Part shown: piece after piece, positions 3,201-56,747 of the stretch
How positions within the stretch are numbered: the first letter of the stretch is position 1
Layout: each line of letters begins with the position of its first letter
Source: Escherichia coli
GTDB lineage: Bacteria > Pseudomonadota > Gammaproteobacteria > Enterobacterales > Enterobacteriaceae
Assembly (NCBI GenBank): GCA_902500005.1
Contig: GCA_902500005.1_3678.1
Reading direction: 5' to 3' (one strand)
DNA length: 64,000 bases
Notes under the pieces: generated by a model
The model's input: the letters and a program-made list of their open reading frames with translations, nothing else
Database searches by the model: none
Told to the model about the DNA's origin: nothing
Translations under genes and position numbers: made by a program

Positions 3201-4690
3201 AGGCAAATGCCAACGCCACAGCGGAAAGAAATTACCCACCAGGGCAGCAGATGGCTGGTACGCTGATCGTTCTTAGAAACTCCGCTAACGAAGGAACAGG
3301 TTGTATCCAGATATATAAAATGTATCTTGGTGGAACATGGGAAAGGTATTACAATAACCTTGGCAGCGGAATGGCTTGGAGCCCTTGGAAGAGAACAAGC
3401 TTCCCAGAAAACACCACCGCTCCAGTTATGCCTGACTTGTGGTTGCCTTTAACCTCTAACCTAAAACCTGCACTGGGTGAAGGTGAGATGGTCTTCTCCA
3501 GACCTTCTACAGCAACCTATTTCACTAAGCGTGGTGTTATGGCTGTTGCACAAGCAAACCAACCACGTTTTGAAAGAGATGGTCTGCTTATTGAAGGGCA
3601 AAGGACAAACCTAATGCTTAACAGTGAAGACCCTAGTAAATGGGGAGCCAGTCAACAGATTACTGTTGGTGGTACTGTGACAAACACCAACGGCACAAAA
3701 GGTGCAAGATTTACAGTAAACACTGCATCCGGTGTGGAAACAACAGCGTTAAACCTTGCTACAGTTCCAGCCACCAGAGGTGCCGATGTAACAGGTGCTG
3801 AGAAATTCTGTACTGGGTCTATTATTGCAAGGGGAGGTAAAGCGAACCAGAGATTACGTATAAGATTCGACATGTACGACGGATCCACCACAACATTTCA
3901 AGGTGATGCTTATGTTAACCTGTCAACACTTGAAGTTAAAACAACAGGTGTTGCAGCGGGGAGAATTAAAGTAAAAGCTGAGAGATGGCAAACAGCCGGA
4001 CCTGCTTGGATAAGGGTTGTTGCTACGTTTGAGGCAGTGTCCTCTGACAGGAATATCGGTTGCCAGTTCCAGATTGCCCCGCCGGAGAGTTCTCAACATG
4101 CCGTAGGGGATTGGGTTGACGTTGCAATACCTCAGTTTGAGTTGGGATCTTGTGAGTCCTCGTTTATCCCTACAGGGTCTTCACCTGTAACCAGGGCGGC
4201 AGATCTTTGTAAATTCCCAATGACGGATAACCTAGCGCCCAGACCATTCACTATCGCCGCTACGGTTGATGCCAACTGGAGAGGCTGGGGCAAAGCTCCT
4301 AACGCAGCCCCTAGGGTTATTGATACAGAGGGTCATCAATCCGGTGCTGCATTTATCATGGGGTTTGGCTCTGCAACAAATATTGCGGAGGACGGTTATC
4401 CATACTGTGATATTGGAGGGTCAAACAGACGTGTTTACGAGATGGCTAAAGCCCGTAAATTGAAAATTGGGTTCAGGATAAAAGATGACGGTAAAACCTG
4501 CTCTTTTGCTAACGGACTGGTGAGCACGGAAACGCAGTCTTCTTGGGAATTCCTAGCAGGAGGCGCTTTCATCCGCATTGGTGGTCAAACGGCGACAGGT
4601 GAAAGACACTTATTTGGTCATATTAAGGACATAAGAGTTTGGAACTCTGCACTGACAGACACCCAGCTTATGATGGAGAGTGTTGAATAA
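251..4690 (+). CDS. long tail fibre / receptor-binding protein (1479 aa) with internal repeats and C-terminal LamG-like domain
   Basis: ATG 7 nt after AGGAG; Gly/Thr/Asn-rich; two copies of a ~50-aa motif (…ANGGTGCRQEYY… / …ANEGTGCIQIYK…); C-terminal …HLFGHIKDIRVWNSALTDTQL resembles LamG/ConA-like jelly-roll motif. Confidence 0.65.
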   Translation: MADIKVVRIESLPATTAVTEDDYLVVQQPDLTRRVKIGDVVHVDGTVSHVISFKEGGKLNGPMDFAYFEEEDLYLRWKGEFPHTVPALSSPYSDGGITDAAWMVYTDPSLREELESTIGASMIMTAEGQSVQDVMDVTVQTANDAKALAQRVDFGTVHTVGDVIHLDNFVGPAVIEEGRTTNYPSVAAGEKFLNGVVSRRDTTTVDGIFRGATSGAMYTIAVTNGVATTKRIALRDEFKRLEANNPTRTVIRAGDDLNTAGYLQLDATGRWGMWNQQTASWQPLAIEQGGTGARDAAGARINLGAFYKQRAALESNFNINNLTGNQDGVYYQPMTAYATEANGYPAGSGAGHLIVWQNNANGGTGCRQEYYPFSNVDVWYLRTYQANTNQWTAWQPMVRPRNDDTFRSHIGLGSRNSPTFGHLYLSQSSADVKSASGIVNGDKYSADGVLEHGYRIYSEVRNDNKAWLTIHLHKGAKGSETHRYLGFREDGVLDCPKYMQVGDLTGQLTNWGLGEWIRSSGAERGFWGSKKAAKMVIWDGGMDESGNGTLEWGVYNNRKAKWEPLPQAAGGTGATTLADAQNLFKVPIAAGVKDFLTLPRTAGMEDGKYYPIIVRTDPYYAPSTGTDITIVTRSSSGNDPMNCATLQCHYRTGGWTDRGDSFYGVVNFYQNEKALLGMVAPTRGKQEYVAFYVEARAFPVSIYASRNVVEVFTREQDYQVGSVTNNQDGVKFVAPLQSADLNLAILGDNNTNTRPIVDFKGTSGFYTGGGTQWHYIGSAERYAVMSKMNMPKVELWADGLDYLCYGSPRKALFSNAGFQCASDGTEDLTNGTFTSKCGNGAGLKGQAEFRSTPEAGQVIVRDVVGTAHRFYNFNKDGTFSAPGGFVCHTGADWNNQFGNNNPSKIMAGNVNGPEGSMVVGGLSVAFSGNYAFQMAGRLDQLYTRSIEQGNHRAWNKVIQHRGQGLGTNDLNDYKADREGIYHQEANANATAERNYPPGQQMAGTLIVLRNSANEGTGCIQIYKMYLGGTWERYYNNLGSGMAWSPWKRTSFPENTTAPVMPDLWLPLTSNLKPALGEGEMVFSRPSTATYFTKRGVMAVAQANQPRFERDGLLIEGQRTNLMLNSEDPSKWGASQQITVGGTVTNTNGTKGARFTVNTASGVETTALNLATVPATRGADVTGAEKFCTGSIIARGGKANQRLRIRFDMYDGSTTTFQGDAYVNLSTLEVKTTGVAAGRIKVKAERWQTAGPAWIRVVATFEAVSSDRNIGCQFQIAPPESSQHAVGDWVDVAIPQFELGSCESSFIPTGSSPVTRAADLCKFPMTDNLAPRPFTIAATVDANWRGWGKAPNAAPRVIDTEGHQSGAAFIMGFGSATNIAEDGYPYCDIGGSNRRVYEMAKARKLKIGFRIKDDGKTCSFANGLVSTETQSSWEFLAGGAFIRIGGQTATGERHLFGHIKDIRVWNSALTDTQLMMESVE

Positions 4691-5022
4691 TGAATACTTT
4701 TACCCTTGGGTTTACTGACAGGGAGGATTTTAACGGTTTCATGGACGAAATCGGCTTTTACGAGAATGAGGTGTTGCAAAACACCCTTCTTGTAGAGGTT
4801 GTCGGGTTCATTTACACAGAGACTGGAGACACTTATGAGGCCGAAGATGAATTTGGCAACATGGTTGTCTACCCGGTTTGCGAGAAAAGTGAATTGTTTT
4901 ATGTTAACGTTCTGGCTCTGGACGAGGATGCAGAAAACATCGTCTCTAAAAGCGGAAAAGTTGTAGATCCGATAAGGTTGAACATGTTCGACCCATCAGT
5001 ATCCACCTTGGAAGCACTTTAA
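4690..5022 (+). CDS. hypothetical protein (110 aa), translationally coupled to fibre gene
   Basis: ATG overlaps upstream stop (TAATG); followed by terminator hairpin. Confidence 0.45.
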   Translation: MNTFTLGFTDREDFNGFMDEIGFYENEVLQNTLLVEVVGFIYTETGDTYEAEDEFGNMVVYPVCEKSELFYVNVLALDEDAENIVSKSGKVVDPIRLNMFDPSVSTLEAL

Positions 5023-52800: not shown

Positions 52801-53166
52801 ATGGAACAAATGAACGATCAAGCGTCGGTTGCGATGAACGAGCAAGAACAACCTCAAGAATTTTTCTTAGGGTTAAGTAAAGATCAAGTGTCTCTTCTGC
52901 TAGTGCTTTCTTCTTTCATGGGAAGACTTCAGGAGCTTACACAACAGCCAGAGGCTGAACAATTATTCCAGGCTCTGCGTGAAGAAGAAAAATATCGTCG
53001 TTTGGACTATGCCTTAGGTTGGGTAGCTCAACAACGAGATATGCTGATGGCCCTCTCTGGGACCACAAGTTTTGCAATGGGCCTGTTGGCTCAAGTTCAG
53101 GACAAATTAATTCAAGCAGGGTTTGCACACACGGCAAACACTAACGAAGAACAAGGAGATAAATAA
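52801..53166 (+). CDS. hypothetical protein (121 aa)
   Basis: ATG after GGAG. Confidence 0.45.
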   Translation: MEQMNDQASVAMNEQEQPQEFFLGLSKDQVSLLLVLSSFMGRLQELTQQPEAEQLFQALREEEKYRRLDYALGWVAQQRDMLMALSGTTSFAMGLLAQVQDKLIQAGFAHTANTNEEQGDK

Positions 53167-54437
53167 TGAGCGTTATTCAACAATTCGCTAACCCGATGAA
53201 TCCGCGTGAAACTGTTTTACTAGCTCACGGCATGATTAAACGTGTCAGCATCAAGCCTATCAAAGGTGCTGATCCTACAACAGGTATTAAAACCACTGTG
53301 TGGCAAGGTAAGAAAATTGAATCCAGCCACACCATCTCTTTACTGATTTCTGAACTGGATTCCTCTGATAACCTACTTCAAGGTGGTGAAGAAGTTTGGA
53401 TCAGTATGGGCGATAAGCTGCTTAAACCGGGTCATCAAGACTCTGTCTCTGTTAAAATTGATGACAAGTGGGAAACCGTAACGCCAGGATGGATCGTAAA
53501 TATCCCTTTGAAGGCAAACGAGCATAACGGTAAGACCTACTACAAAGGCTCACTGGCTAAGATGGTTAAGCTGGGTGCAGGAGAGGCTCCAGCAGCGACT
53601 CAGCAGCAAAAACAGCAACAAGGTGCACAATCACAAGGCCAGAAGCAGAAACCTCAGCAGAATGCCAATCAGGACGTTTTACGCATCTATGGTGATGTGA
53701 CTCAGATTGTTGGCAACGTGGTTACTGTTAATGACCACAAGATTGGTGAAGGTGCTATGGTTGTAACTGATGAGCAGCTTAAAGACCTGGTGGTAGGTGG
53801 TCGTGTTGCAGCCATTGTTGACAAAGACACCGGAAACATTATCAGTGGTTTCAAAGCCTATCCTCCTAAGGCAGAGAACGGTACTCAAGGCTCCGGTGGC
53901 AAGCGTAAATCCTCTTACGACCCTATCGGTGTGGAAACGGGGCATAGCATCAATGCGTTGCAGATCATCCTGGATCGCGGGTTTAAGGTAGACGACCCAC
54001 TGGGCGTGGCTAAAACACTGCACGTAGTCACCATTGAGCTTAAGAAAGAGTATGCTCAAGCCACCAACCGAACTGAAGATGAAGTAGGTGCCAGTGTCGG
54101 TAATGCGGTGTTGAACGCTTGTCGCCGTATTGACAAGAAAACGAAAGTTGATGATTTTGCAGTGGCAATTACTGCAGAAGCAAAAGATGTCTTGACTAAT
54201 CTAGCTGAGCCGTTGTACGATTGGATCAAGAACGGTGCTGAGTCCACTGACCATCAAGAACCTCAGGCTGCCAAACAGGAAGCAGCTCCACAGCAAAACA
54301 CTGTAGACGCTCCTCCTGTAAATGATGCGGAAGATGACCCAATGGATCAGAATCCAGCACAGTATGACTTCTGTGATGACATACCTTTCGCTCCGGTGGG
54401 TTTGCAATATGGCAAAAGTAGAATCCACGCATTGTAA
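53166..54437 (+). CDS. putative single-stranded DNA-binding protein (SSB-like acidic tail)
   Basis: Gln-rich low-complexity linker; …DFCDDIPF near C-terminus resembles the bacterial SSB tail DDDIPF but is followed by 15 extra residues. Confidence 0.4.
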
Positions 54438-55032
54438 GAGGTGCATCAAGTGCGGAGAGGTGAAAAACCTCTCCGAGTTCTACAAACACCCAAAGATGTC
54501 TGACGGTCATCTTAATAAGTGCAAAGAGTGTTGTAAGAAGGCCAGCAGGGAGGCTGACCAATTTTCCCACGACTCTTCAGAAAAAGGTGTGATCCGCGTG
54601 TTGTACAAGACTCAAAAGTGCAACAGTAAGAAGAGAGGTCACCCGCCTCCGACTTACACCAAAAAGGAGTTTAAGGAGTGGCTATACCTGAACGGTTACA
54701 AAGAGTTGTATGATCAGTGGGTAGCCAGCGGATACGACAAAAGGAAAAAGCCTTCTTGTGATAGGATAGATGATTTCAAAGGGTACTCTTTTGATAATAT
54801 CCGTTTAACGACCTGGGGAGAAAATAAAGACAAGCAGACGGAGGATATTCTGTTGCATAGAAGCACCAGCGGTAGACGGTGTAAAAATGTAAGGAGGCTG
54901 GACATGAATGGTAACGTTCTTAAAGAATGGGTATCCCACAATTCTTGTAGAAGAGAAACCGGAATATGTGTTGATTACTACATTCATGAAAAAATTCCAG
55001 CTCCCGATGGATACCTCTATGAATACTTTTAG
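54409..55032 (+). CDS. zinc-ribbon nuclease-like protein (possible HNH/EndoVII-type homing endonuclease)
   Basis: CKRCIKCG…H…DGH…CKECC zinc-binding cluster; C-terminal …[14 protein letters not shown]-like tail; ATG 54409 overlaps SSB-like gene 3' end. Confidence 0.35.
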
Positions 55033-55047
55033 CACCTAACTGACATA

Positions 55048-55076
55048 GCCCTGCCCGAAAGGGTGGGGCATTTTTG
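55048..55076 (+). terminator. rho-independent terminator, copy 2 of identical hairpin
   Basis: gccctgcccgaaagggtggggc + atttttg. Confidence 0.55.
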
Positions 55077-55094
55077 TATAAGGAGATCTGAAAA

Positions 55095-55873: not shown

Positions 55874-56299
55874 ATGATCTATGAAATGCCAAAACTGATT
55901 CGTGACGATGCCCAAAACGCTCACACCATTATTATGGGCAAACGCATGGATATTATTTGTCATAAAGATTTCTGGGAAGGAAGTTACTTCACAGAGTATT
56001 TTGGTAAACTGGACAATGGTCTGCTGATCCAGTTCTACACCGATGCGGAAAACAACATTCACTGGGAGTTCGAAACTGAAGATATCCATAAACTTTTCAC
56101 CTTCCTCGGTATTAAGGTTGAGGCCAAGTTTGAAGAAGGTGAGTGCGACGATTGTGGATTCTATGAGGTAACAGATTTCTATCTCCCGAGTGGTGAGAAC
56201 CTTTACTATGAAAGCCACTTCGGTAACTCCAATATGCCACAGTGCTGGACTGAGTTTTTTGAAATTGCGGAAGAGGAGCTGGCATACCGTGATTATTGA
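55874..56299 (+). CDS. hypothetical protein (141 aa)
   Basis: ATG after GGAG. Confidence 0.45.
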   Translation: MIYEMPKLIRDDAQNAHTIIMGKRMDIICHKDFWEGSYFTEYFGKLDNGLLIQFYTDAENNIHWEFETEDIHKLFTFLGIKVEAKFEEGECDDCGFYEVTDFYLPSGENLYYESHFGNSNMPQCWTEFFEIAEEELAYRDY

Positions 56300-56747
56300 T
56301 ACTGTAGAGGGAGATTTAATCTCCCTTTTTAAGAGCGGTGCTGGTCACCTGATCCACGGTTGTAACTGCTTTCACACAATGGGTGCAGGTATAGCGAAAG
56401 ATATTGCCCGTGAGTTCCCTCAAGCACTGGCAGCCGACAAAGAGACTGCTTATGGTAATCTAGACAAGCTGGGTATGTTTTCTTGTTGGGAGCATTTTGC
56501 CAAGAACAGGGTCGTATATGGAATCAACCTGTATACCCAGTTCTACCCAGGGCCCAATGCTGAATACTTCTCAATCATGAAAGGTTTTGAGCGAGTCAAC
56601 GAGGTATTCAAAGGTGTGTCATTGCCGTTCTACATTCCTAAAATCGGATGCGGTATTGGCGGTCTAAAGTGGGAACATGTGGAAGATGTAATTAATCTTG
56701 CAACCACAGATATTGATGTGGTTGTAGTAGAGTACAAAAAGTGTTGA
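56289..56747 (+). CDS. macro-domain protein (ADP-ribose binding/processing)
   Basis: …HLIHGCNCFHTMGAGIAKDIAREFP… and …IGCGIGGL… resemble macro-domain signature motifs; GTG start overlapping upstream stop (track ATG at 56190 lies inside upstream gene). Confidence 0.6.
   Translation: MIIDTVEGDLISLFKSGAGHLIHGCNCFHTMGAGIAKDIAREFPQALAADKETAYGNLDKLGMFSCWEHFAKNRVVYGINLYTQFYPGPNAEYFSIMKGFERVNEVFKGVSLPFYIPKIGCGIGGLKWEHVEDVINLATTDIDVVVVEYKKC

Follow-up and report, generated by a model that had tools for sequence, protein, structure and literature searches.

Why does a protein that carries the acidic C-terminal tip of an SSB (a protein that binds single-stranded DNA) not end at this tip, and what has the nuclease gene that begins within its last codons to do with it? 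The question is raised by a locus in a 64,000-nucleotide (nt) stretch of DNA, referred to as the window, from an assembly listed under Escherichia coli (GCA_902500005.1, contig GCA_902500005.1_3678.1), the source of which is an rV5-like Vequintavirus. The original prediction took the 15 codons that follow the tip for the footprint of a free-standing homing endonuclease gene (HEG) inserted at the 3' end of an SSB gene. Its description of the locus (an open reading frame (ORF) for 423 amino acids (aa), a Gln-rich linker, DFCDDIPF followed by 15 codons, and an ATG at 54409 inside this extension) is correct throughout, and its coordinates were confirmed. We arrive at another reading of the extension: the additional residues form a separable, portable tail module, a free-standing HEG is located at the stop codon of this module, and the HEG most likely brought the long tail into rV5-like genomes. 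The probability that we assign to this reading is about 70%. The features of the locus are:

53166-54437, plus strand: SSB-like gene, 423 aa, PHROG 4477; ATG at 53166, TAA at 54435-54437.
54366-54389, plus strand: tip resembling that of SSB, DFCDDIPF, residues 401-408; internal here, C-terminal in HEG-less alleles (AFDDDIPF or TFDDDIPF).
54390-54437, plus strand: tail add-on, 15 codons (54390-54434) and stop; a member of the module AP[VI]GLQY-x4-hydrophobic end.
54390-55029, plus strand: optional block of 640 nt (tail add-on and HEG), missing in HEG-less Vequintavirus alleles according to junction alignments.
54409-55032, plus strand: predicted free-standing HEG of the HNH (beta-beta-alpha-metal) type, 207 aa; ATG at 54409, TAG at 55030-55032.
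54409-54437, plus strand: overlap of 29 nt between the SSB-like gene and the HEG; the ATG of the HEG lies within the tail codons for Q-Y-G.
55048-55079, plus strand: intrinsic terminator (hairpin and T-run), common to HEG-less alleles, where it follows 14 nt past the DDIPF stop codon.

The locus was compared with a reference set of 116 phage records, which align to the ~2.3 kb around it with 92-98.5% identity. A segment of 126 nt, which spans the tail extension and the nuclease start, recurs in 32 independent phage records with 96-100% identity, so that neither chance read-through nor a sequencing error accounts for the arrangement. Within Vequintavirus, three allele states are found. The first (32 of the 116 records) is that of the window, in which add-on and nuclease gene are both present. 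In the second (~19 records, e.g., L003), the same nuclease gene is present with different first ~130 nt; it starts 8 nt past the intact stop codon of a 408-aa protein that ends ...EFDDSIPF and has no extension. The third and most frequent state (~65 records, e.g., L001 and L002) is devoid of the nuclease gene; here, the gene for the 408-aa protein closes with ...[AT]FDDDIPF-TAA, 14 nt ahead of the terminator hairpin. The closest relatives without a nuclease, which the original prediction had proposed for comparison, thus end exactly at ...DDIPF-stop. The HEG-less junction of phage APECc02 contains GATGATGACATCCCTTTTTAACATCTAGTTAAC.

The first and third states differ by a block of 640 nt, which extends from the first codon past Phe408 through the last codon of the nuclease gene (also Phe), and the locus spans 1661 nt in HEG-less records vs. 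2301 nt in the window. In the window, the HEG is thus located between the SSB-like gene and the terminator of that gene. The flanks are 92-98.5% identical whatever the state. Because the flanks of HEG-less records (up to 98.3-98.4%) are as close to the window as those of the closest HEG-bearing record (98.5%), the presence/absence polymorphism of the HEG is considered recent. The gene is optional at a fixed site in near-identical genomes, which is what characterizes a free-standing HEG. A tail without a HEG was not encountered among the 116 Vequintavirus records.

HEG-bearing alleles show non-synonymous changes of the tip at the junction, from FDDDIPF to FCDDIPF in the first arrangement (window 54366-54389) and to FDDSIPF in the second (L003, 3070-3093). 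To judge from the sequences, these changes are consistent with target-site immunity or co-conversion. The Cys variant of the tip (DFCDDIPF) also occurs in the HEG-less allele L038. In a clade of 75% identity, the HEG-less record L043 (2746-2830) has, where L041 has the tail and the HEG, an unrelated filler of ~65 nt with a sigma-70-like promoter (TTGACA, 17 nt, TATATA). The polymorphism in that clade represents a replacement rather than a simple insertion or deletion.

Is the add-on a peptide in its own right? We define the long-tail module as A-P-[VI]-G-L-Q-Y straight after ...IPF, followed by 7-9 residues with a hydrophobic end and then by the stop codon; the window tail conforms to this definition. 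The 423-aa protein has 72 homologues, of which 27 terminate in ...D[FWY]D[DES][DN][IV]PF-AP[VI]GLQ[YH]-x7-9. The long-tail homologues have sequence identities down to 26% (26-40%) and are interleaved with short forms. When the 26-aa tail peptide was used as query in tblastn, 244 phage records covered at least 80% of the query. The codons of the add-on were compared across 13 genes, with 3 codons used for Ala (GCT/GCC/GCA), 4 for Pro (CCG/CCA/CCT/CCC), 4 for Gly, 6 for Leu, 2 for Gln (CAA/CAG), and 2 for Tyr (TAT/TAC); third positions vary freely in the codon alignment and the residues are kept. In a profile-profile comparison, tails of the rV5 family match those of canonical long-tail SSBs with a probability of 98.7% (E-value 2e-16). 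The synonymous variation at fixed residues, together with this tail-to-tail match, argues that the add-on is a peptide module under selection. It was also considered that the add-on is conserved merely because it overlaps with the ribosome-binding site and start codon of the HEG (GGTGGG within P-V-G, ATG within Q-Y-G); this was rejected because the same residues, encoded by varied codons, occur in genes that are followed by a terminator and have no HEG.

The module is not confined to one protein family. The canonical SSB of Salmonella phage g341c (PF00436, E-value 1.9e-37) carries the long tail; the TIGR00621 profile stops at F153 and 15 residues follow (APVTLPFPRHAIHAI). The gene after this SSB is annotated as 3'-5' exoribonuclease. 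Long tails were also retrieved by the tblastn search from OB-fold proteins of Vibrio phages (OB, oligonucleotide/oligosaccharide-binding) and from T1-like SSBs. A DnaB-type primase/helicase of Klebsiella phage vB_Kpn_K54_rec1 (L032, 1018-3081) carries the add-on and ends ...PDDDTPFAPIGLQYAKHAIYVI. Phage K54_rec1 was checked for a long tail on both types of protein, and it was found on the primase/helicase only; the SSB-like protein gp87 ends DFDDQIPF, and a zinc-ribbon HNH gene comes after its gene. In the same phage, the DNA polymerase is annotated in several pieces with HNH genes between them. The add-on thus forms the C-terminus of proteins with at least five unrelated bodies: canonical SSBs of PF00436, members of the rV5/phi92 family, a DnaB-type primase/helicase, and two further types.

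IMG/VR and 185,579 bacterial and archaeal species genomes were scanned with a degenerate DNA pattern that encodes DIPFAP[IVM]GLQY. In IMG/VR, 38 loci match; of their 35 proteins of full length, 31 group with canonical SSBs. The species genomes yielded 8 occurrences, 7 from gamma-proteobacteria and 1 labelled Parasphingorhabdus; canonical SSBs account for 6 of the encoded products, and a 45-kb plasmid is among the contigs, as are several sequences of 38-56 kb. The module therefore looks essentially phage-borne. As judged from these comparisons, the add-on is a conserved, portable module that is selected at the protein level and present in hundreds of gamma-proteobacterial phages. It is apparently an undescribed variation on the theme of the SSB C-terminal tip. 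Publications on the Sak4/HK620 SSB, on Retron-Eco8, and on DARNA treat other SSB tails and contain nothing on the add-on motif.

Long tails without a nuclease gene are common outside the genus. In Serratia phage Kashira, a terminator directly follows the stop codon and the next gene is on the opposite strand. In phi92 (gp156) and in L016, a methyltransferase gene comes next, and in L012 and L015 there is a terminator immediately 3' of the stop codon. The OB-fold protein of Vibrio phage 511E55-1 and the SSB of g341c likewise have the long tail and no nuclease gene downstream. Among the 38 IMG/VR loci, 33 lack a nuclease ORF of the zinc-ribbon type at the stop codon, with too little downstream sequence to judge in 3 of them; the others comprise 2 with an intact zinc-ribbon HEG, 1 with a 5'-truncated copy, and 2 with overlapping ORFs that keep only a HEG-like start. 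The claim that the extension is the footprint of an insertion is contradicted by Kashira, phi92, L012, L015, L016, g341c, and 511E55-1, in all of which the same extension occurs without the nuclease. The related claim that the HEG altered the SSB tail holds in part: the extension is linked to the HEG within the rV5 genus (32 of 32 records) but was not created by it.

How, then, are the nuclease gene and the tail coupled? Wherever a zinc-ribbon nuclease gene stands behind a long-tail gene (window, L008, L041, morffagbaw, phiEB49/L071, and L080), the reading frame of the nuclease runs across the tail stop and the cysteines of the zinc ribbon are encoded directly past it. In three of these (L008, L041, and the window), the tail stop is straddled by a Cys codon (T TGT AAG), which in the window is that of Cys9, just ahead of the zinc ribbon. 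The nuclease starts either at the ATG in Q-Y-G, which results in the 29-nt overlap (also in the T1-like phage morffagbaw and in L080), or at an ATG in Y-A or Y-V, which results in an 11-nt overlap (L008, L041, and L071). The endonuclease of morffagbaw shows 66% sequence identity to the window HEG over the N-terminal 44 aa and then continues differently, with a canonical HNH core. What distinguishes the first from the second allele state of Vequintavirus is precisely the segment for the tail add-on together with the front half of the zinc ribbon. This difference and the chimeric nature of the morffagbaw protein indicate that the tail-coding segment and the N-terminal zinc knuckle behave as an exchange unit. 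Zinc-ribbon or other HNH genes are also found 3' of short-tail alleles (L011/K54 gp88, L018, L028, and L024), so that the 3' end of SSB-like genes is a general landing site for HEGs. This is plausible since the DDIPF codons would be among the most conserved DNA of these genomes.

Two further observations concern such gene pairs. L065 (~4683-4800) and L069 (~594-720), one of them on a contig of ~54 kb, code for SSBs of the 150-aa class with a tail almost identical to that of the window. The ORF that overlaps with these genes starts MEKAESTHY or MAKAGSTRY, similar to the window HEG (MAKVESTH), and then codes for an unrelated protein of 97 aa that lacks a zinc ribbon; it may be the remnant of a replaced HEG. 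The endonucleases behind the long-tail SSBs of L033 (2140-2547; Mt1B1_P17) and L078 start MADGH[LV]NKCK inside the zinc ribbon, without the first CxxC, and are either decaying HEGs or have mis-called starts.

For the history of the locus, we favor the reading in which the HEG brought the tail into the genus. A HEG lineage would have been resident at the 3' end of long-tail SSB genes; upon entering rV5-like genomes, it would have carried the tail-coding segment along, with the left-hand junction at the conserved DDIPF codons, and its entry would have converted a short, host-type SSB tip to the long form. The reading is favored because no Vequintavirus has the tail without the HEG, because short HEG-less alleles are in the majority, and because the closest tails (GKSRIHAL[S]) occur in unrelated phages of ~54 kb (L065 and L069). 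In addition, zinc-ribbon HEGs with a related N-terminus are located at the same stop codon in unrelated phages. Several points weigh against this reading. Within the genus, tail and HEG could have been gained together or, starting from a long-tail ancestor, lost together, and one short allele without a HEG does show the rV5-type DFCDDIPF (P0005/L038). AlphaFold2 leaves the add-on disordered and no partner was identified. A description of the add-on was not found in the literature, of which open-access text was searched. Finally, the HEG has Arg in place of the first His of canonical HNH enzymes, and its activity is a predicted one.

The alternative that survives best reverses the direction: the long tail would be ancestral, and the short ...DDIPF-stop alleles would have arisen by deletion of tail and HEG between two contexts of Phe and stop (CCTTTC/GCT... 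and ...TACTTT/TAG). We consider this a serious but clearly less probable option. More distant Vequintavirinae and related families are mostly long-tailed, several of them without a HEG; the short allele and the HEG both end with Phe-stop and are followed by the same downstream sequence; and the HEG-less P0005/L038 retains the rV5-type tip. Against this, no Vequintavirus record represents the expected tail without a HEG. L038 shows the downstream markers of HEG-less alleles (TAA CATCTAGTTAAC, not TAG CACCTAACTGAC), so that it is not a simple deletion derivative of a window-type allele, and in the 75%-identity clade the HEG-less L043 has its promoter-like filler instead of the block. The tail is a real module under either direction, gain or loss.

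What kind of protein carries the tail in the window? The 423-aa protein, the product of an early gene, matches PHROG 4477, a family without an assigned function, with an E-value of 1.7e-173, and the profile stops exactly at residue 408, the Phe of DDIPF. Scans of this protein against Pfam and NCBIfam returned no match, and it is not a member of PF00436 or TIGR00621 by sequence. As these scans gave no usable match for the nuclease either, the SSB and nuclease assignments are based on PHROGs, predicted structures, and profile searches. In an AlphaFold2 model built on 34 homologues, the N-terminal beta-barrel (aa 1-140) is predicted with confidence; it is followed by the Gln-rich linker, which is disordered (141-168), a small second beta-barrel (170-235), a four-helix domain (253-355), and a disordered arm (~360-423), with pLDDT values (the per-residue confidence of the model) below 50 from residue 398. 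The N-terminal barrel is predicted to adopt the OB-fold of single-stranded DNA-binding domains, which bears out the SSB-like identity given in the original prediction. Weak fold matches to DUF2815/gp2.5-like phage SSBs were also found. Homology of the N-domain to canonical or T1-like long-tail SSBs was considered and rejected: hhalign did not reveal significant homology to canonical long-tail SSBs, with only a weak local match to a hairpin (E-value 0.0065, probability 6%). P407 and F408 are invariant across the 34 homologues, and the acidic tip is found at the extreme C-terminus in HEG-less alleles but at residues 401-408 of 423 in the window allele. Predicted fold, architecture, and tail support classification of the protein as SSB-like, and from this we infer that it binds single-stranded DNA.

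The position of the tip bears on what the tail may do. In known pockets that accommodate the SSB tip, the terminal Phe has its side chain buried and its alpha-carboxyl group anchored on a basic lip, and deletion of the Phe abolishes partner binding (PMC10164576). Because the 15 residues after DDIPF remove the free alpha-carboxyl group, the long form should fit the pockets of host proteins badly, and its binding to them would be weak or absent. The long tail would then serve as an alternative partner-binding motif and change the set of proteins that are bound. DFDDDIPF is nearly invariant in long-tail proteins even though it is internal, and for this reason the whole motif of ~23 residues may be one recognition element for another partner. 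The occurrence of the add-on on a primase/helicase resembles the acidic tail common to T7 gp2.5 and gp4 and, by analogy, points to a component of the replisome or of recombination as the putative partner. In the AlphaFold2 model, the tail is not docked onto the folded domains, which gives no support to an auto-inhibitory fold-back.

The near-invariance of an internal DFDDDIPF would also be easily explained if this were the true C-terminus after processing, with the add-on acting as a removable or regulatory cap, either a degradation tag or a pro-sequence that is cleaved by a protease to expose DDIPF-COOH. The nonpolar ends of the add-on (YAL, HAI, HCF, MCM) fit such a role, but there is neither direct evidence nor a known protease site, and a mere tag would not require a core as conserved as AP[VI]GLQY. 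We thus regard the cap as improbable.

Even less probable, in our view, is accidental read-through, whereby insertion of a HEG into the 3' end of the SSB-like gene would have abolished the stop codon of the latter and left a 15-codon extension that damages the partner-binding tail. Among the closest relatives, the extension is indeed strictly tied to the HEG, and HEG-less alleles stop at DDIPF. However, the same 15-aa pattern recurs in unrelated SSBs as well as in homologues that are 26-40% identical, and a nuclease gene downstream is mostly lacking; the synonymous codon variation indicates selection on the peptide; and the second HEG arrangement (L003) keeps the stop codon intact.

The nuclease itself matches PHROG 1035, which is named "endonuclease VII" (E-value 3e-41), and over 250 homologues of it were found among phage and metagenome sequences. 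It has no Pfam match whatever at E-values up to 1, Endonuclease_7 (PF02945) included. Its N-terminal part includes the residues KCKECC. Across 42 homologues, C12, C15, C38, and C41 are invariant, as is the motif K-P-S-x-D-R-[IL]-D...G-Y-S...N...W-x-x-N. The model (pLDDT 91) has its best structural matches in PacI, I-HmuI, and Hpy99I, and consists of a Cys4 zinc ribbon (~aa 9-42), a helical region, a PacI-like D-R...G-Y...N core (~113-148), and a putative DNA-binding domain that resembles I-HmuI and NUMOD domains (~157-207). The beta-beta-alpha-metal fold with its Asp/Asn metal ligands and a general base is predicted to be present. The first His of the canonical H-N-H is replaced by Arg (D-R-I-D), as in PacI. 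Two homologues with 56-57% sequence identity (P0099 and P0134) match PF22083 (I-HmuI_NUMOD-like) above the cut-off, and the nuclease profile is co-linear with I-HmuI residues 73-171 in a weak match (E-value 0.2). The invariant Y126 aligns with the Tyr of the G-Y motif of PacI; PacI is an enzyme of the HNH family with Cys4 zinc sites, in which Tyr takes the place of the usual His as general base (PMC4081073). The model, the invariant motif, the NUMOD-like homologues, and the alignment of Y126 together argue that the 207-aa protein is a beta-beta-alpha-metal nuclease with the predicted architecture of a homing endonuclease and not a member of the T4 endonuclease VII family. With its presence/absence among relatives, its fold, and its motifs, the view of the downstream gene as an optional, free-standing HEG of the HNH type is upheld. 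That it codes instead for a housekeeping junction resolvase of the endonuclease VII type can practically be dismissed: the name is found in PHROG 1035 and in many GenBank records, and T4 endonuclease VII is likewise a zinc-containing beta-beta-alpha-metal enzyme, but the gene is missing from ~56% of near-identical phages, neither Endonuclease_7 nor any other Pfam family matches, and the structural matches and the NUMOD-like domain of homologues lead to PacI, I-HmuI, and Hpy99I.

Three observations concern the surroundings of the locus and its records. Four genes downstream of the HEG is an ORF (56190-56747) with orthologues annotated as Macro-domain (ADP-ribose-binding) protein or as phosphatase; it has no connection to the SSB-like gene and the HEG. 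Sixteen records listed as "Campylobacter phage" (MG065635-MG065690; host Campylobacter jejuni) match rV5-like phages of E. coli with 97-98% identity at the locus and look like mislabelled or co-isolated coliphages. In E. coli O157 typing phage 4 (BFVD matches A0A0F6THK0 and A0A0F6THU5), the SSB-like gene is annotated as separate proteins of 168 aa and 100 aa, which suggests a frameshift or an assembly error of that record.

The SSB tip is held to be a strictly C-terminal docking peptide, yet hundreds of gamma-proteobacterial phages bury it under 15 conserved residues. If the add-on switches partners or blocks SSB-interacting proteins of the host, it would be a general and overlooked means by which phages separate their single-stranded DNA metabolism from that of the host. 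We tentatively propose that the module after the Phe of the tip masks or re-targets the tail and that the zinc-ribbon HEG family at its stop codon moves the module between unrelated phages. If true, a selfish nuclease would drive the exchange of a replisome interaction motif. The rV5 genus represents a natural experiment, with near-isogenic phages that have a short or a long tail and differ by one block of 640 nt, and such natural allele pairs make both tail function and HEG-driven spread directly testable.

Among known systems, canonical SSBs (E. coli SSB, ...DFDDDIPF-COOH; PF00436/TIGR00621), which usually bind single-stranded DNA as homotetramers, share with the window protein an N-domain with OB-fold, a disordered low-complexity linker rich in Gln and Pro, and the gamma-proteobacterial DF-x-DDIPF tip; the HEG-less alleles end exactly at the Phe, as canonical SSBs do. 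Unlike these, the 423-aa protein has no family membership at the sequence level and has two additional folded domains (small barrel and four-helix bundle); its tip is internal, and with 15 residues after it the free alpha-carboxyl group used by the tip-binding pockets is missing. Phage T7 provides a parallel for an interaction tail on several proteins: the SSB gp2.5 and the primase/helicase gp4 share a short acidic C-terminal tail ending in Phe, which may be compared to the add-on on SSB types and on the K54_rec1 primase/helicase. The sequence is a different one, Phe is the last residue of the T7 tails, and among the phages examined none was seen with the long tail on SSB and primase/helicase alike.

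Taken by itself, the HEG is an ordinary one, a new example of a familiar type. Its best solved relative by sequence and fold is PacI (3LDY/3M7K), with which it shares the C-x2-C...C-x2-C zinc ribbon and the v-D-R-x-D-x3-G-Y-S-x2-N core. It resembles I-HmuI and free-standing phage HEGs of the HNH type in the beta-beta-alpha-metal core and the putative NUMOD-like C-terminal DNA-binding domain, and also in being optional among near-identical phages and located beside a conserved replication gene. Unlike the intron-encoded I-HmuI, it is free-standing and intergenic, with an N-terminal Cys4 zinc ribbon and Arg for the first His. The closest precedent for its mobility is the intronless homing of T4-type phages (e.g., SegG and MobE). 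The window locus, where homing is inferred from sequence, is unlike these in that the co-inherited flank encodes a whole peptide module, so that the C-terminus of the neighboring protein changes. It is like them in that the HEG is located between genes and shows a presence/absence polymorphism, and in that the flank differences beside the insertion are consistent with co-conversion and target-site immunity.

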